Shown here: positions 3,058 through 23,004 of the stretch, in pieces
How positions within the stretch are numbered: position 1 is the first letter of the stretch
Layout: each line of letters begins with the position of its first letter
DNA from: an uncultured delta proteobacterium
Lineage (GTDB): Bacteria > Desulfobacterota > Binatia > Binatales > Binataceae
Assembly: GCA_963761255.1 (NCBI GenBank)
Contig: CAVXGH010000001.1
Span: forward strand, 345,675-409,674
DNA length: 64,000 bases
Direction of reading: 5' to 3'
Position numbers and translations under genes: made by a program
The notes under the pieces: generated by a model
What the model was told of the DNA's origin: nothing
Seen by the model: only the letters and a program-made list of their open reading frames with translations
Database searches by the model: none

Positions 3058-4788
3058 ATGTCAGCCAAAGTGGTTGAACTTCACGAGAAAGCCCGCGTCG
3101 GCATCGTTCGCGGCGCCAACCTGGTCGCCAAAGCCGCGCAAGTCACCCTCGGCCCCAAAGGCCGCAATGTCCTGATCCAGCGCTCCTTTGGCGCACCGCT
3201 GGTGACCAAGGACGGCGTCACGGTAGTCAAGGAAATCGAGCTCGAAGACCGTTTCGAGAACATGGGCGCTATGATCATCCGCGAGGTCGCGCAGAAGACC
3301 GGCGATGTCGCCGGCGACGGCACCACCACCGCCACCGTCCTCGCGAAAGAAATGGTGACCGAGGGCATCAAGCTGTTGGCGGCGGGCCTCGCGCCGATGG
3401 AAATCAAGCGCGGAATGGACCTCGCACTGGCGGCGGCGCGCAACGCCATCAAGGAAATGTCCAAACCCATCAAGGATCGCGAACGGATGGAGCAAGTTGC
3501 GACCATCGCGGCCAATGGCGATTCCACCATCGGCAAGCTCATCGCCGATGCGATGCAGAAGGTTGGCAAGGAAGGCGTCATTACGGTGGAAGAAGGGCGC
3601 ACCCTCGAGACCACGCTCGATCTCGTTGAGGGGATGGTTTTCGATCGCGGCTATCTATCACCGTATTTTGTCACCAATCCGGATCGCCTCACCGTCGAGC
3701 TCGATGAGCCGGTGATCCTGCTGCACGAAAAGAAAATTTCCAACCTGCGCGACATGATTCCGTTGCTCGAACAAATCGTCCAGACCGGCCGTCAGTTGCT
3801 CATCATCGCGGAAGACGTCGATGGTGAGGCGCTCGCGGCATTGGTCGTCAATAAGCTGCGCGGCGCGCTCAAGGTTGCGGCAGTCAAAGCCCCGGGTTTC
3901 GGTGACCGTCGCAAAGAGATGCTCGAGGATCTCGCCATCCTCACCGGCGGTGAAGTTATCGCCGAGGAGTTGGGCCTCAAGCTGGAGAGCGTGAAGGTGA
4001 CCCAGCTCGGCAAGGCGCGCAAGGTGGTCATCGACAAGGACAACACCACCATCATCGGCGGCTCCGGCAAGAAGTCGGATATCAGTGGGCGCATCGAGCA
4101 GATTCGCCGTCAGATCGCGGACACCACCTCCGATTACGATAAGGAAAAACTTCAGGAGCGCCTCGCGAAGCTGACCGGCGGTGTTGCCGTCCTCAAGGTG
4201 GGCGCCGCAACCGAAGTTGAGATGAAAGAAAAGAAGGCGCGCGTTGACGATTCAGTTCATGCGTTGCGCGCCGCGGTGGAGGAGGGCGTGGTGCCCGGCG
4301 GCGGGGTCGCATTGGTTCGCGCGATGAAAGCCGTGCTCGAGTTGAAACTTCGCGACGAGCGCAAAGCCGGCGCGGAGATTGTCGCACGCGCGATGGGCGA
4401 GCCGCTGCGTCAGATTGCGAAAAACGCCGGCAGCGAACCCGAAGTCATTTTCAACGCGGTGCGCGAAGGGAAAGACGACTACGGTTTCAACGCCCGCACC
4501 GATACCTTCGAGAAGCTGAACGAGACTGGCGTCATCGATCCGGCCAAGGTGGTTCGCTCTGCGCTGGAAAACGCCGTCAGCGCGGCCTCGTTGCTGCTGA
4601 CGACCGAAGCCGCCATCGCCGAGAAGCCTCGCAAGGCTGCGCCGATGGGGATGCCTCCAGGAATGGGTGGAATGGGAGGCATGGGCGGTATGGGAGGCAT
4701 GGGTGGAATGGGCGGTATGGGTGGAATGGGAGGCATGGGAGGAATGGGCGGAATGGGCGGAATGGATGACATGGGTGGTGATTTCTAA
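3058..4788 (+). CDS. groL: Chaperonin GroEL (Cpn60) with an extended (GGM)13 C-terminal tail; no groES upstream
   Basis: Unmistakable GroEL sequence ([36 protein letters not shown]...; [11 protein letters not shown]); the C-terminus has 13 GGM repeats. Confidence 0.97.
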
Positions 4789-5036
4789 CCCGGATCATTG
4801 AAGAAAAGGTCGGCAGAGCAGGTTTAGTTGGTCATCAGTAAACTAGAAATCACTTGGATAACTACTTGGAGCGATAACTTCGAAGATGCAATCCGCTAAT
4901 GCTGAAAGTTTCTTCGAAGTAGAGTTTCGTATCTGAAAAGCTTGCATGCTCGACATGGTTATGAGACAAAAATAGGGTTCGTGCGCGGTTGCTTATGACA
5001 CTGGGCTACCGCGCGAGTTTTATTTAGGAGGACAGA

Positions 5037-5456
5037 ATGGAAGGGTTAATAAAGAAATCTTCAAAACTTGTCGGGCTGGCTGCCGGGGCTGCGTTGGCCC
5101 TTTCCTTTGCGGCAGGATGCTCGTCAGGTCAGCCCGATCCCGCGCAGCGCGCCGTGAATGCGGCGAATCGCGCGGACCAGGCTGCATCACGCGCCGAGGC
5201 TGCCGCTACCAAGTCGCAGCAGTCGGCTGCCCAGGCTCAGGCTGCTGCCAGCCGCGTCGAGCAGGCTGCCAGCGATGCGAAGGCTGCGGCTGATCGCGCA
5301 GAAGCGATTGCGGCCAAGACCATGGCCGGCGCCAAGCACGGCGGTGGCATGCATCATCGCCATCACAAGAAAGCGGCGGCTGAAGGCGGCGAAGGCGGAG
5401 CCGCGGCTCCCGCTCCGGCCGAAGGCGGCGCTGCACCGGCTCCTGCAACTCCGTAA
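5037..5456 (+). CDS. Ala/Gln-rich lipoprotein, paralog of 2033..2314, with a His-rich segment
   Basis: Signal peptide plus lipobox AAGC; Ala-rich helical repeats (AASRAEAAATKSQQSAAQAQAAASRVEQAASDAKAAADRAEA); HGGGMHHRHHKK; RBS aggagg. Confidence 0.55.
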   Translation: MEGLIKKSSKLVGLAAGAALALSFAAGCSSGQPDPAQRAVNAANRADQAASRAEAAATKSQQSAAQAQAAASRVEQAASDAKAAADRAEAIAAKTMAGAKHGGGMHHRHHKKAAAEGGEGGAAAPAPAEGGAAPAPATP

Positions 5457-7484: not shown

Positions 7485-7525
7485 CAAAGAAAGGGCGCGA
7501 CGTTGATGATGCCGCGCCCTTTGTA
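7485..7525 (-). terminator. Rho-independent terminator downstream of ilvC (minus strand: GGGCGCG-N13-CGCGCCC then TTTCTTTG)
   Basis: 7-bp GC stem followed by a T-rich tract when read on the minus strand, about 55 nt after the ilvC stop. Confidence 0.55.
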
Positions 7526-7575
7526 TTCGAGCTCCTTCGAAGACTAAGGATGACTCCTCGCCTTCGGCTATGGAG

Positions 7576-8592
7576 TCAATTCTTTGCCTTATCCACCAAC
7601 CGGTCGCTGGCCAGCCATGGCATGAACGAGCGCAACTTCTTTCCCACTTCCTCGACCGGGTGATGCTCGCCTTCCTTGCGCATCTCGCGGAAGTGCGGAA
7701 GCCCCGCGCGATACTCATTGATCCATTCGTTGGCGAATTTGCCCGATTGGATATCCGCGAGGATCTGCTTCATGGCCTTGCGCGCATCTTCGCTGACGAC
7801 TTTCTTGCCGCGCGTCATATCGCCGTATTCGGCGGTGTTGCTGATCGAGTAGCGCATGTTGGAAATGCCGCCCTCGTAAATCAGATCCACGATCAGCTTC
7901 ACTTCGTGCACGCACTCGAAATACGCCATCTCGGGCGCGTATCCCGCTTCGACCAGCGTCTCGAAACCGGCGCGAATCAATTCGGTCAACCCGCCGCATA
8001 GCACCGACTGCTCGCCGAAGAGATCGGTTTCGGTTTCTTCCTTGAAGGTGGTTTCGATGATCGCCGCACGCGCTCCGCCGATCGCCGCGCCGTACGCGAG
8101 GCCGATTTTGGTGGTGTCGCCCGAGGGGTCCTGCTGCACCGCGAGAAGGCAGGGAACGCCGCGTCCCTTCGTATATTCGGAGCGCACCAGATGGCCGGGT
8201 CCCTTGGGCGCGATCATGAACACATTGACGTCCTTGGGCGGTTTGATGAATCCGAAATGGATGTTGAAGCCGTGGCCGAAGGCGAGGTACTTGCCGGGCT
8301 TGAGCGCGGGTGCAATTTCCTTTTCGTAAATTTCGCCGCCCTGCTCGTCGGGCACTAGCATCATGATGATCTCGGCTTCGGTGGCCGCCTCGGTCGTGTC
8401 GAGCACCTTGAGGCCGTTTTTCTGCGCCTTGTCGATGCTCGCGCTGCCCTTGCGCAGACCGACGCGCACATCCATGCCGCTGTCGCGCAAGTTGAGCGCA
8501 TGCGCGTGTCCCTGGCTTCCATAGCCGATGATCGCGATCTTCTTGGGACGAAGAAGGCTCAAGTCAGCGTCGCGATCGTAATAGACTTTCAC
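7576..8592 (-). CDS. ilvC: Ketol-acid reductoisomerase
   Basis: [39 protein letters not shown]...; class I KARI length (338 aa). Confidence 0.95.
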
Positions 8593-19714: not shown

Positions 19715-21577
19715 ATGAAAATACCTGCTTCACGGATCTTCGCTGGACGCGCCGGCCTGTTCGGCATCTTCATCGCCATCGCGCTGACCGCCTCGACTTC
19801 GCGCGCAGCCGACACTCCCGATGCGTCATCGCCGGCGCGCGGGCGCATCGTCATCCTGATGGTATGGGATGGGCTGCGGCCTGACTTCGTCACGAGGCGC
19901 GACACGCCGAATCTGTATGACCTCGGGCGCGAGGGCACCCGCTTCGACCGCCATCATTCGATGTATCCGACGCTGACTATGGTGAATGCGGCGGCGCTCG
20001 CGACCGGCGCCGCGCCGGGTGTGAATGGCATCGTCGGTAATGTGCTGTATCTCGCGCCGCTGCTCGGCGACAAAGCCTCCGTCAACCCGAAGCTCGCCAA
20101 GCCGGTAATGCTCGAAAGCACGCCGCTGCTGGCCGACCTCGATAGCGACGGCGAGTTTGCCGGGCATCTGCTTGGCCTTGATTCGGTGGCACAGCAACTT
20201 GAACGCGAGGGCGGCTACGTCGCGATTGCGGGCAAGGGAGGGCCCGCATTTCTCTTTGATGATCGAGTGGAAACCATCAAGGACGGCCGCGATTCGCTCG
20301 GCAATCCGCACAAGGACTACCTTTTCGCGACCGATGATCTCACCGAGCCCCCGCAAGCCGCGGTCGAGAAGGCTCCCGCCGGAAGCCATGAGGGCGTGGC
20401 CGATTCCGCACGCGATGTGTACTTCACCCACATCGTTACCGAGGACGCCATCCCCGCGGCGAAGCGCGCCTCCGATGCGGGGCGTCCCTCGCTCATCGTG
20501 CTATGGCAGCACAACCCCGACCTGACGCAGCATATCGCCGGTCTGGGCACGCTGCCGGCGCTGGAGGCACTGAGCGGCGCCGACATCAACCTCGGCAGGG
20601 TGCGCGCGGCGCTCGACAGCAACGGTATCGCGGACCGCACCGACGTCATCGTGGTATCGGATCATGGCTTCGCGACGGTGCGGATGACCATCGATCTGAA
20701 TGCGCTGCTGGTTGGCGCGGGCCTCAAGAAGGACCTCGACAGCGACGACGTGGTGGTCGCGCGCAACGGCGGCAGCGACCTCATTTATCTATCGAAGACT
20801 GCGTTCCCGACCGAGAGTGCGCGCCACGATGAGCTTCAGAAGATCGTCAATTTCGCCGAGGCCCAGGAATGGTGCGGGCCGATTTTTTCGCGCCAGACCG
20901 CGCCGATGCCGGTCGAAGGGAAGCATCGCCGGCGGCCGCCGCCCGAGGCATCCTTCATGGGATGGATCGATGGCACCTTCGCGCAGGAGGCTATCGGCAT
21001 CTTCAATCCGTCGCGCTCGCCCGACCTGACGCTTTCGTTTCGTGAAATCTCCGAGCAGGACAACCGGCAACTCACCGGCCCGGACGCGCCCGCATTCGCG
21101 ATCGCGGCCAAAGGGCAAACCTCGGTGAAAAACAATTCGAAGACCCTGGTGCATCCTGTGCGCGGCATCATGTATGCCGATGCGGGCGCTTCCTTCACCA
21201 CTGGAATGGGGATGCATGGCGCGGCCGGCGCCGCTGAGATCCACAACGTGTGCGCGGCCATCGGACCCGACTTCAAGCGGGGCTTCGTCGATGCGAATCC
21301 GACCGCCAACATCGATGTCGCCCCGACGATTACTCACATCCTGCAGATGGCGCCGAATGTCGGCCCCGGCGGCGCGCATGCGACCGGACGCATCCTGACC
21401 GAGGCGTTTCCGGGTGAGCGGCAATGGGTCGGGACCGCGAAATCCCTCGCGCCGAGCACTAAGCTGACGCTGCAAGGGGTCGAGGTGACTAATACCCTGC
21501 GCATCACGCGGTTGGGCGAGCATGACTACCTCGACAATGCGACCGAGGCGCGCAATCCGCTGGGCAGCAGCCCCTAA
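19715..21577 (+). CDS. Secreted alkaline-phosphatase-superfamily enzyme (type I phosphodiesterase / nucleotide pyrophosphatase-like)
   Basis: Signal peptide; metal-binding core IVILMVWDGLRPDF...MYPTLTMVN...VIVVSDHGF typical of the NPP/AP superfamily. Confidence 0.75.
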   Translation: MKIPASRIFAGRAGLFGIFIAIALTASTSRAADTPDASSPARGRIVILMVWDGLRPDFVTRRDTPNLYDLGREGTRFDRHHSMYPTLTMVNAAALATGAAPGVNGIVGNVLYLAPLLGDKASVNPKLAKPVMLESTPLLADLDSDGEFAGHLLGLDSVAQQLEREGGYVAIAGKGGPAFLFDDRVETIKDGRDSLGNPHKDYLFATDDLTEPPQAAVEKAPAGSHEGVADSARDVYFTHIVTEDAIPAAKRASDAGRPSLIVLWQHNPDLTQHIAGLGTLPALEALSGADINLGRVRAALDSNGIADRTDVIVVSDHGFATVRMTIDLNALLVGAGLKKDLDSDDVVVARNGGSDLIYLSKTAFPTESARHDELQKIVNFAEAQEWCGPIFSRQTAPMPVEGKHRRRPPPEASFMGWIDGTFAQEAIGIFNPSRSPDLTLSFREISEQDNRQLTGPDAPAFAIAAKGQTSVKNNSKTLVHPVRGIMYADAGASFTTGMGMHGAAGAAEIHNVCAAIGPDFKRGFVDANPTANIDVAPTITHILQMAPNVGPGGAHATGRILTEAFPGERQWVGTAKSLAPSTKLTLQGVEVTNTLRITRLGEHDYLDNATEARNPLGSSP

Positions 21578-21674
21578 CGACCCATAGTTTACCAAATGTG
21601 CTATAGTTAAGGACGGTCGCCGCTCCGCTCAGGGGCGGCGGCGCCGTTTATGGGAACAACGATTTTTCAACATC

Positions 21675-22080
21675 GAAAAATGCGAAAACAAACCCACTTC
21701 TCGGCAACGCCGAGAAGTGGCCCTGAGGCCGCCGAAGGGCCTCCGCGAAGCGATTTGAGGATTCGGCAACGCCGAGAAGTGGCCCTGAGGCCGCCGAAGG
21801 GCCTCGAAGGGCAAGATGTCGAGCATCAGAAGCGCAAAAACAAAGCCACTTCGGGATTGCCGCCGACTGCGGAAATCGCAAAAACAAACCCACCGCGAGC
21901 ATCGCGAGCGGTGGTCCTGAGCGCTTCGCGAAGGACCTCGAAGGGCAGGATGCCGAGTGTCAGAAGCGCAAAAACAAAGCCACTTCGGGATTGCCACCGA
22001 CTGCGGAAATCGCAAAAACAAACCCACTTCGCGGTTCAGGAGAACAAACATCGAAAACCCGTGCCAGTATTGGGTTTTCT
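21675..22080. repeat. Non-coding block of degenerate tandem and interspersed repeats with embedded palindromic hairpin modules
   Basis: Five copies of gcaaaaacaaa[g/c]ccac; a 41-bp module occurring twice (CTCGGCaacGCCGAG and GGCCCT-N11-AGGGCC palindromes); a ~66-bp module occurring twice ~135 bp apart; terminal hairpin AAAACCC-N11-GGGTTTT plus TTTTCT at ~22054-22080; ORFs are open in all frames, which fits repeat DNA rather than coding sequence. Confidence 0.7.
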
Positions 22081-22212
22081 GAATCTCTTGGCTCATGGCG
22101 CTATGGCAAACTTCGGCCTGTGACCCAGCTATCGGGCGGACTATCGCTTGGCGCGCAGCGAGGTTCGATGCTAGTACCTTAGGCTTGGAGACGAGGCCAG
22201 GAGGCCATCATC

Positions 22213-23004
22213 ATGAGTGCCAAAGGATGGGTCAAAACCCCGGAACAGATTCGCAAGATCCAGGAACGCCTCAACCAGCCCGCGTTCCTGCAGGGCAAGA
22301 TGATGAGCGTCAGCTTCCTGACCCGGCCCGAAATCGTGCGCGAGGTCCTGCCGCCTCCGCTCGAGCCGGGCAGCCAGCCGCTGGTCACCGTGAGCGTATG
22401 CACCTTCGGCTCCTCGAACTGCGTCGGTGAGTTCGCGGGAGGGGTGGTTGATATGTCGGCGAAGTACAACGGCATCGAGGCCAACCACTGCCTCGCGATG
22501 CCGATGTCGACTGACGTGGCGATCATCTTCGGCCGCGAGCTCTTCGGCGAGCCCAAAAAGCAGGGCCGCGTGCAGCTCAAGAGCGATGGCGATGTGGTGC
22601 GCGGCACCGTCGAGCGTTTCGGAATTCCATACATCCAGCTCGAAGGACGCTTCACTGAAAATGTTCCGATCACCGGGCCGACCTTCAGCGATCGCTTCCA
22701 CTTCAAGTTTATGCACGCCGCCGACGGCAACGGGCTCGAGTTCGATCCCATCATCGTACACGCGCACTTCCGCAACGAGTTCAAAACCATCAAGCGCGGG
22801 GCCGGCAAGGTGACCCTCAAGGCGACCCCGCACGATCCATTGCCGGAGATCGAAATGGTCGAGCTGATGGGGGCGACCTATAGCGAGGGCGACATCTTCG
22901 CGGAAGCGAAGGCGATTGGAACGGTGGCGGCGGCTAAGTTTTTACCCTATTCGTTCCAGAACATCGACGATTACAGCGGGGAGATTCCGCGAAACAATTT
23001 GTAG
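22213..23004 (+). CDS. Acetoacetate decarboxylase (ADC)-family protein
   Basis: AIIFGRELFGEPKKQG aligns with the ADC active-site region AIAVGRELSAYPKKLG (catalytic Lys); similar length; RBS aggagg. Confidence 0.65.
   Translation: MSAKGWVKTPEQIRKIQERLNQPAFLQGKMMSVSFLTRPEIVREVLPPPLEPGSQPLVTVSVCTFGSSNCVGEFAGGVVDMSAKYNGIEANHCLAMPMSTDVAIIFGRELFGEPKKQGRVQLKSDGDVVRGTVERFGIPYIQLEGRFTENVPITGPTFSDRFHFKFMHAADGNGLEFDPIIVHAHFRNEFKTIKRGAGKVTLKATPHDPLPEIEMVELMGATYSEGDIFAEAKAIGTVAAAKFLPYSFQNIDDYSGEIPRNNL

Follow-up and report, generated by a model that had tools for sequence, protein, structure and literature searches.

The window analyzed here, a 64,000-nucleotide (nt) stretch of DNA from an uncultured delta proteobacterium of the Binataceae, contains a 636-nt gap between an open reading frame (ORF) for a phosphodiesterase (PF01663, 620 aa, 19715-21577, + strand) and an ORF of the acetoacetate decarboxylase (ADC) family (PF06314, 263 aa, 22213-23004, + strand). 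Inside the gap lies a block of repeats built around a short motif, here called the box. The block is one copy of a previously undescribed, multicopy, modular noncoding family of Binatia, in which boxes are arrayed on one strand between defined 5′ and 3′ modules. An earlier annotation made from the letters alone (the sequence-only reading) had placed a noncoding, A-rich repeat block of lowered GC content between the two genes, and this was borne out: no Pfam match was found in the gap, the composition of the block was A-rich and T-poor (A 0.286, T 0.152, AT skew of up to 0.45), and its GC content was mildly lower, at 0.55 to 0.62 compared with ~0.62 to 0.68 in the flanking genes.

The box, GCAAAAACAAASCCAC, occurred as exact copies at 21834, 21878, 21968, and 22012 and with one mismatch at 21682, all on the + strand, against a chance expectation of 0.02 over the whole window. 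These five copies and the irregularity of their spacing, measured here as 152, 44, 90, and 44 nt, had been described correctly, as had a duplicated palindrome module with an offset of 62 nt (21701 and 21763) and a degenerate third copy (GGTCCT...AGGACC, 21913-21937); the exact duplicate measured 43 nt. A further duplication, reported as ~66 bp long and ~135 bp apart, was real and larger than stated, being a 114-nt module present at 21795-21908 and 21929-22042 with 89% identity and a spacing of 134. Tandem Repeats Finder reported no repeats in the block, and the modules are therefore interspersed rather than arranged head to tail, so that the word “tandem” did not apply. Nor were all six frames open; a single stop-free frame per strand was found in 21640-22100. 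The hairpin AAAACCC-N11-GGGTTTT was present at 22054-22078, but the TTTTCT run said to follow it was the 3′ arm of the same hairpin (GGGTTTTCT), with no extra T-run, and a simple terminator scan did not call this supposedly terminator-like end. The proposed Rfam check matched no family: Rfam 15 gave no match at the gathering score over the whole window and chance-level matches only when the block region was searched to E=10, and 18 related loci gave none except an unrelated transfer-messenger RNA. A CRISPR or type III toxin-antitoxin RNA array was considered and rejected in view of the irregular spacing and the neighboring phosphodiesterase and ADC genes.

Dispersal and layout of the family

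A search for other genomic copies of the modules, also proposed with the original description, returned many. One genome per GTDB species was scanned with the pattern CAAASCCAC-N20-45-AAAACAAASCCAC, and 91 stretches were recovered, mostly from long-read metagenome-assembled genomes (MAGs) labeled “uncultured delta proteobacterium” or Binataceae. Several loci were present in single Binatia MAGs, with 11 in CAWKOR01, 8 in CAWKCZ01, and 7 in CAWFIF01. Family membership was defined as at least two same-strand cores, AAC[AG]AA[CG]CCA, within 400 nt in intergenic DNA, which includes the window with its five boxes. In the Binatia set of 48 sequences (47 Binatia-type loci plus the window), this core was counted 207 times and formed 50 same-strand arrays of 2 to 8 cores, with a box consensus of AAAC(A/G)AA(C/G)CCA(C/A). 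Adjacent cores lay on the same strand in 151 of 151 pairs and on opposite strands in 0, and the arrays examined were all intergenic, bar one with a probably spurious spanning ORF.

The gene downstream of the array was convergent in 26 cases and co-oriented in 17, according to crude ORF calls, and this mixture indicates that the arrays are not leaders of particular genes. Ten sampled neighbor proteins were ordinary enzymes and the like (P450, amidohydrolase, cupin, CinA, and TamB among them); a transposase or repetitive extragenic palindrome (REP)-associated tyrosine transposase (RAYT) was not among these ten. Paralogues within one genome had diverged outside the motifs and are therefore unlike the product of a recent burst of a mobile element. 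Viral contigs gave 0 matches in the scan, a literature search with the box sequence returned unrelated primers only, and no description of the family was found in the searched literature on Binatota repeats. A metagenome scan for transcript-sized contigs returned contigs of at least 1 kb throughout and was uninformative about RNA ends.

Members shared a fixed order, consisting of a 5′ P module, a first box, internal boxes, and a 3′ module of type T1 or T2. The P module comprised (GTCGAAAT)gTGCTATCAT, a gap of 1 to 13 nt (mostly 5 to 8), a GC hairpin, and CGTTT..GGAG. Its −10-like motif, searched as TG[CG]TA[TC][ACT]AT, was found at 19 sites in 875 kb (both strands of the Binatia loci and the window), and 18 of the 19 lay no more than 160 nt upstream of a same-strand box, a location for which 2.5% of positions qualify. 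The motif was present in at least 20 other arrays, including some with a divergent upstream gene (e.g., L092, L053, L056, L040, and L098), where the P-module hairpin cannot be the terminator of that gene. The arrangement of −10-like motif followed by hairpin was found in 20 members, and the stem sequence varied while pairing was kept. A sigma-54 promoter was not seen upstream on inspection.

The first box often read ttACATAAACGAAsCCAC, and the internal boxes, gcaAAAACAAAsCCAC, were separated by hairpins within two kinds of unit, a canonical unit of 90 nt (box, hairpin H1, and hairpin H2) and a short unit of 44 nt. At the 3′ end, T2 was composed of ACCAAACGAAGCCAAAT, a small hairpin, and a U-rich run, while T1 followed the scheme TCAGGAGAA...GCGTAAC...TTAGGGCAAA or, more briefly, TCAGGAGAA...GGCAAA. 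The T1 block, AAACAAAsCCAC-N-TCAGGAGAA...TTAGGGCAAA, was common to 18 loci, the window aligning with 17 others; RNAalifold predicted no pairs for T1 on the MAFFT alignment.

The window copy (21599-22110, + strand) showed this layout throughout. At its 5′ end, the extended −10-like motif TGCTATAGT (21599-21607; TGCTATCAT in the family consensus), which we take to be the promoter, was followed after 8 nt by the GC-rich hairpin GTCGCCGCTCC/GGGGCGGCGGC with two U.G wobbles (21616-21643) and then by GTTTATGGG (21646-21654), which together make a P module. Box 1 (GCGAAAACAAACCCAC, 21682-21697) formed one canonical unit with H1 (CCACTTCTCGGC-AAC-GCCGAGAAGTGG, 21694-21720) and H2 (GGCCCT-GA-...-GA-AGGGCC, 21719-21741), and this unit scored 75.1 bits against covariance model R1 (21674-21762). 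It was followed by the second copy of the 43-nt module (21763-21805), made of a partial H1 and H2 and belonging to a 62-nt subrepeat that was also present three times in locus L061. Box 2, of the G type, opened a short 44-nt unit (21834-21877) with a GATT...AATC hairpin at 21855-21877; the orthologous locus L003 retains a hairpin at this position with different bases. Box 3, H1 in a tandem G.A variant (21890-21914), H2 (21913-21937), and a tail occupied 21878-21959 and made up the top-scoring canonical 90-nt unit, at 96.5 bits (E=1.8e-21; R1, 21870-21959). Both window units sat in the R1 seed alignment, so that their scores are partly circular; independent members scored 70 to 93 bits. Box 4, again of the G type, with its short-unit hairpin (21968-22011), lay within the second copy of the 114-nt module, and box 5 (22012-22027) was the last. 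The T1-type 3′ module (22033-22110) ran from TCAGGAGAA (22036-22044) to ...TATGGCAAA (22102-22110) and included the terminal hairpin GAAAACCC/GGGTTTTC (22053-22079), which by inspection is retained in L003 through G.U pairs. All of these parts are on the + strand. Two other matches in the window were set aside: an R1 match at 7509-7595 (27 bits) was an ordinary gene terminator, and a P-like match at 2926 belonged to a CIRCE operator preceding a Cpn60 gene and not to the family.

Homologues of the ADC protein came from MAGs named Candidatus Binataceae or “Deltaproteobacteria bacterium.” In a near-identical strain (L001), the gap was 100% identical, which is uninformative since the whole surrounding block of 20 to 27 kb was nearly identical too. 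In L003, with 90% identity in ADC and ~83% nucleotide identity in the flanks, the order phosphodiesterase-gap-ADC was syntenic around a homologous 676-nt gap; conservation extended over both ends, the first unit, and the final two boxes, and the internal modules were rearranged. The block was absent next to ADC homologues of 75 to 87% identity (L004, L005, and L007). Two further orthologous pairs, L022/L091 and L026/L077, were found in different Binatia MAGs with the same neighbors, such as a convergent Cupin_2 gene. Within each pair, the 5′ and 3′ modules were the same and the internal units differed in number and kind, which indicates turnover of units inside a fixed frame. An 11-nt direct repeat flanking the block, AACATCGAAAA, was rejected as a target-site duplication, since it equals the pre-box consensus cGAAAnnGC at a truncated last unit and its 5′ copy is absent in L003.

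Some additional features of these loci were recorded. A short-read Logan contig (L002), 99.98% identical to the window, stops at window position 21998, inside the second 114-nt copy. In L001, the phosphodiesterase was called as three fragments (3645-5365; 133, 323, and 121 aa) compared with the single 620-aa ORF of the window, and the alignment has 13 gap openings, probably long-read indel errors. The 100 nt upstream of ADC (22160-22212; ~4950-5000 in L003) were conserved in L003 and included an AGGAGG ribosome-binding site, a −10-like TGCTAGTAC, and a sequence similar to the P-module promoter GTCGAAAT-TGCTATCAT, namely GGTTCGATGCTAGTAC. A promoter of its own is therefore probable for ADC.

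Pairing, strand, and the box in other phyla

The H1 and H2 helices were 96 to 97% paired across 25 units. The three helices tested, including a third hairpin, H3 (GGCAnnnTGCC), were together 89.5% paired; H3 itself reached 58.7% and was dropped. Across 35 covariance-model matches, 95.2% of cells were paired and 8 of 13 pairs had changed on both sides, figures from an alignment fitted to the model and hence favorable to structure; none of 500 shuffles reached the observed pairing in the R1 matches. In the L003 orthologue, one hairpin changed from GGCCC/GGGCC to GGTCC/GGACC. H1 and H2 were almost purely Watson-Crick, and on inspection H2 and one H1 variant retained a tandem G.A/A.G motif. The boxes, by contrast with the sequence around them, were predicted to be largely open, with a mean paired probability of 0.30 compared with 0.61 outside the boxes, a difference that held in 37 of 37 arrays. 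Within each box, the A-rich half was predicted to be unpaired (paired probability, 0.08 to 0.23).

Folding of both strands, another check proposed at the outset, showed the window block to be more stable than shuffled sequences, with z scores of −4.8 for the + strand and −3.0 for the − strand. In 20 P-module hairpins scored symmetrically, 14 G.U and 3 A.C appositions were counted (one-sided binomial, ~0.006), as selection on a + strand RNA would predict. Because of this bias in the 5′ hairpin, the stronger folding of the + strand, and the position of the −10-like motif, the + strand is likely to be the transcribed one.

Same-strand box arrays were also found in MAGs labeled, according to record titles, as Phycisphaerales, Phycisphaerae, Planctomycetaceae, Alphaproteobacteria, Bryobacterales, and Terriglobia. 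These included L023, L036, L057, L074, and L084 (all in a Phycisphaerales MAG), L009 and L090, L039, the Alphaproteobacteria loci L013, L027, L038, L079, and L059, and the Acidobacteriota loci L080 and L073. Position-frequency matrices gave 88 to 100% conservation of AAC.AA.CCA at every core position in each group, and the degenerate positions were identical across groups (R at 6, S at 9, and C/A at 13), while flanks and spacers differed. The Binatia hairpin modules, as represented by R1, were absent from these loci. The Phycisphaerales arrays followed a promoter-like site, TTGCAA-N16-TATACT with an upstream TG, then a hairpin and GCTCTTTGACAA, which we take to resemble a boxA antitermination site. 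Since the other-phylum loci were found with the box pattern, the independent evidence consists of the degeneracy pattern and the surrounding architecture only. A common core and degeneracy alongside different flanks, spacers, and hairpin modules suggests that these loci share a recognition element and not the ancestry of the element as a whole. More tentatively, the box might be the recognition element of a conserved RNA-binding factor, and promoter-led, antitermination-protected box-array RNAs might constitute a class of multivalent molecules, regulatory or scaffolding, that crosses phyla; this is possible and rather doubtful. Such a class would span Binatota, Planctomycetota, some Alphaproteobacteria, and Acidobacteriota, with an expansion in Binatia to dozens of paralogues in each genome.

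Candidate function and competing explanations

We give about an even chance to the window element (21599-22110) being an independently transcribed, structured RNA gene read from the + strand. The foot of the 5′ hairpin would be the start of transcription, and this hairpin would shield the end of the RNA. The parts observed are TGCTATAGT 8 nt before the GC hairpin, five boxes between stable predicted hairpins, and a 3′ module that includes an A-tract/U-tract hairpin near 22053-22079. The RNA would then act in trans as a multivalent display of boxes. The factor that binds them could be an RNA-binding protein or a G/U-rich RNA, for which the display would be a decoy or a scaffold. This proposal was favored because the promoter-like element, the 5′ stem-loop, the single-stranded boxes, and the 3′ module match those of sequestering and scaffold RNAs. 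On the opposite strand, each box with its hairpin reads as a hairpin followed by GGGTTTGTTTT, a pattern that could stop antisense or convergent transcription. In the course of evolution, arrays gain and lose internal units and keep their 5′ and 3′ modules. Among the candidates offered in the sequence-only reading, a structured noncoding RNA fared best (−10-like motif, G.U-rich 5′ hairpin, covarying hairpins, and 3′ modules), with no Rfam match.

Several observations weigh against the proposal of an independent box-display RNA. Isolated boxes were not enriched (6 in 437 kb, compared with 2.35 expected from shuffling, in a sample that was biased to array loci and missed degenerate sites), so that no set of mRNA targets sharing the box is in view, although a mechanism like that of CsrB or CrcZ would predict one; the sponge step, which we infer by analogy, is weakened accordingly. 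On inspection, the frequent AAACGAA and GGAAACAAA box variants misfit the (ARN)n pattern of Hfq, while AAAAACAAA fits three ARN triplets, and GGA occurred ~8 times in 430 nt, roughly as expected by chance. The wobble test gave no strand signal for H1 and H2, with 3 G.U against 6 A.C, or 11 against 7 when one doubtful pair was included, and conservation of these hairpins fits DNA or either RNA strand. The terminal hairpin of the window has an 11-nt loop and only three G-C pairs and was not called by the simple terminator scan, and the promoter, 5′ end, and 3′ end of the element are all predictions from sequence. The locus sets were gathered with the box pattern itself, so that the array statistics are conditioned on that pattern. 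Finally, the arrays of L026, L077, and L064 have no P module and start 6 to 100 nt after a co-oriented gene; because such arrays directly trail genes, some copies may be parts of 3′ untranslated regions (UTRs) rather than separate genes. Complementarity of the box to tRNA T-arms was also inspected; it fits the AACGAACCCAC variant only and was judged coincidental.

The block might instead be a genomic repeat resembling REP elements or bacterial interspersed mosaic elements (BIMEs), BOX elements, or mycobacterial interspersed repetitive units (MIRUs), an explanation that is quite possible, though we doubt it. It would then be selfish or structural DNA amplified by recombination, slippage, or some enzyme, with local effects only (mRNA 3′-end stabilization, termination, or insulation) and no trans-acting RNA. 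The elements are indeed dispersed, intergenic, modular, and rich in palindromes, and unit number and order differ at orthologous loci (window/L003, L022/L091, and L026/L077). The exact 43-nt duplication in the window and the break of the short-read contig within the repeat agree with such an origin, as do the lack of strand-specific wobble bias in H1 and H2, the unrelated housekeeping or metabolic genes on either side, and the arrays that directly trail a co-oriented gene. BIMEs and the related REPINs, however, are built from inverted pairs, whereas the orientation here is strictly direct (151 versus 0). A module order with defined 5′ and 3′ ends, a near-consensus extended −10 tied to the arrays, and the G.U bias of the 5′ hairpin also speak against a simple repeat, and so do the divergence of within-genome paralogues except at the motifs, the ten sampled neighbors without a transposase or RAYT, and the recurrence in other phyla of a box with the same degenerate positions and different spacers. 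The REP/BIME-like candidate of the earlier annotation was thus right about dispersal, given the 91 stretches, and failed in its strict form, the pairs being direct, the copies diverged, and a GTAG-type signature lacking. Its alternative of a recombination hotspot or former insertion scar was likewise split: a scar is unsupported because the block holds the full ordered architecture of the family, while internal modules do turn over between orthologues.

The remaining explanations concern the other strand, the neighboring genes, and the open frames. On the − strand, H1 followed by GTGGGTTTGTTTT supplies a GC stem and a U-rich tract, and the block could be an array of intrinsic terminators or an insulator. 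The terminator scan called 21720-21694 (a 12-bp stem followed by GTTTGTTTTC) and 21907-21893, the same geometry was seen in the Phycisphaerales locus L084, and convergent downstream genes outnumber co-oriented ones in the crude ORF calls (26 versus 17). The gene to the right in the window, ADC, is nevertheless on the + strand, which leaves no − strand transcript to stop; the short units set the hairpin ~10 nt from the U-rich tract, and in other phyla many boxes lack a hairpin next to them. A U-tract, moreover, needs no invariant G or GTGG, whereas AAC.AA.CCA was 96 to 100% conserved in the Binatia set, and the promoter-like motif and wobble bias point to the + strand. As an account of the block, − strand termination is improbable; it may be a genuine secondary property that blocks antisense or convergent transcription. 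A shade less probable again is a role specific to this locus, whether as a long 5′ leader of the ADC gene, as a cis-regulatory region of that gene, or as the phosphodiesterase 3′ UTR. Both neighbors run in the same direction as the block, and the same two genes flank it in L001 and L003, yet arrays of the family mostly face convergent genes and have unrelated neighbors, the ADC loci L004, L005, and L007 have no block, and the ADC upstream region holds its own −10-like TGCTAGTAC and AGGAGG, both conserved in L003. Least of all is a small basic repeat protein to be expected from the 157-aa (+) or 155-aa (−) ORF. One stop-free frame does cross the block on each strand, but neither ORF has a Pfam match, the + strand ORF is broken in the syntenic L003 after ~40 shared residues, most of the box spacings (152, 44, 90, and 44 nt) are not divisible by three, and conservation tracks nucleotide motifs and base pairing rather than a reading frame.

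Known systems and further observations

Among known RNAs, CrcZ of Pseudomonas (407 nt) carries six A-rich stretches that bind and titrate Hfq through its distal face (PMC4063720). By analogy, CrcZ/CrcY and the sequestering RNAs of the CsrB/RsmZ type would be the closest functional relatives of the window element. They share with it a noncoding element of ~400 to 500 nt with its own promoter (predicted in the window) and several short single-stranded motifs between hairpins, five in the window and six in CrcZ. The window element differs in having no sequence or Rfam match and a box that is neither pure (ARN)n nor GGA. The Binatia family also has many paralogous loci per genome (up to 11 found), where these RNAs have one to three genes; single boxes show no enrichment elsewhere in the Binatia loci, and no sigma-54 or CbrB-type promoter was seen.

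In its genomic behavior, the family looks most like the pneumococcal BOX elements or MIRU loci. The BOX elements of Streptococcus pneumoniae are dispersed intergenic mosaics of the form boxA-(boxB)n-boxC. Like these, the Binatia arrays have defined end modules, variable internal direct repeats, predicted secondary structure, and no associated transposase (among ten sampled neighbors); unlike them, they have a promoter-like 5′ module and a box conserved beyond the phylum, and the two are unrelated in sequence and phylum. The MIRUs of Mycobacterium are head-to-tail tandem repeats with small ORFs that overlap neighboring genes. The likeness to MIRU and other variable-number tandem repeats lies in direct units of 40 to 100 bp, tens of intergenic loci, and copy numbers that vary between related strains, whereas the Binatia units are interspersed with different hairpin modules, gave an empty Tandem Repeats Finder result, and keep no frame. 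REP/BIME elements of enterobacteria and the REPINs of Pseudomonas are linked to RAYT transposases. They too consist of short, GC-rich palindromes, intergenic and dispersed in mosaics often at gene 3′ ends; the Binatia units are direct only (151 versus 0), with no inverted doublets or GTAG-type head, and their paralogues have diverged, with no RAYT among the ten sampled neighbors. A further parallel is provided by the TAACTGA direct repeats of Beggiatoaceae, Cyanobacteria, and Bacteroidetes, for which binding of a posttranscriptional regulator has been proposed; these are likewise short oriented motifs in 2 to 6 copies at many intergenic loci of distant phyla, with no visible transfer mechanism, but they lie a few nucleotides upstream of start codons, to which the Binatia arrays are not tied (PMC4679880). 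The Binatia arrays also differ from them in having promoter-like and 3′ modules of their own and intervening hairpins.

The Binatota, a phylum common in soils worldwide, are uncultured, and to our knowledge no noncoding RNAs or repeat families have been described in them. A gene-like RNA family at ten or more loci per genome, with one conserved box repeated several times in each copy, would imply an abundant RNA-centered system for sequestration, scaffolding, or processing. The recurrence of the box in arrays of other phyla provides a concrete handle for finding its binding partner, and the box is a simple sequence signature for annotating such loci in metagenomes. The arrays break short-read (de Bruijn) assemblies, as at L002, and their hairpin and U-tract modules may be prone to miscalling as terminators.

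Two other dispersed modules were encountered in the Binatia loci. One, of ~150 nt, absent from the window, was often embedded in arrays (L008 at ~4880-5020, L026, L034, L043, L046, and L078) and followed the scheme ...GGTGG..CTCCACC..GGCTCTCATCCG.CCGTCACGG.TCTCGCATCGAAGCCATCGCGAGAAC...CCTTCTCTCGC..GCGAGAGAAGG, with no Rfam match. The other is a palindrome, CTATCGACAT-N3-ATGTCGATAG or TACCGAC...GTCGGTA, usually located just past the 3′ module of the array (L008, L051, L054, L056, L064, L067, L019, L040, L053, and L015). Long, regular tandem arrays with the same 12-mer as the box were seen in low-GC metagenome contigs (GC, 0.36 to 0.45; L100, L102, L173, L156, L144, and L130), with up to 76 copies in 5 kb and periods of ~13, 25, 29, and 83 nt; these are probably an unrelated satellite or coding repeat.

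Elsewhere in the window, a solitary box-like sequence with two mismatches, GCAAAAACAGACCCAA, was found on the − strand at 1786-1804, immediately past the stop codon of an ORF on the opposite strand (65-1780); this is within chance expectation. A CIRCE-like inverted repeat, TGGCACTC-N9-GAGTGCCA (2936-2961), presumably an HrcA operator, lies upstream of the Cpn60/GroEL ORF (3058-4788), and a lone box-like AAACGAACCCAA (2986-2997) is located between this repeat and the Cpn60 start codon.

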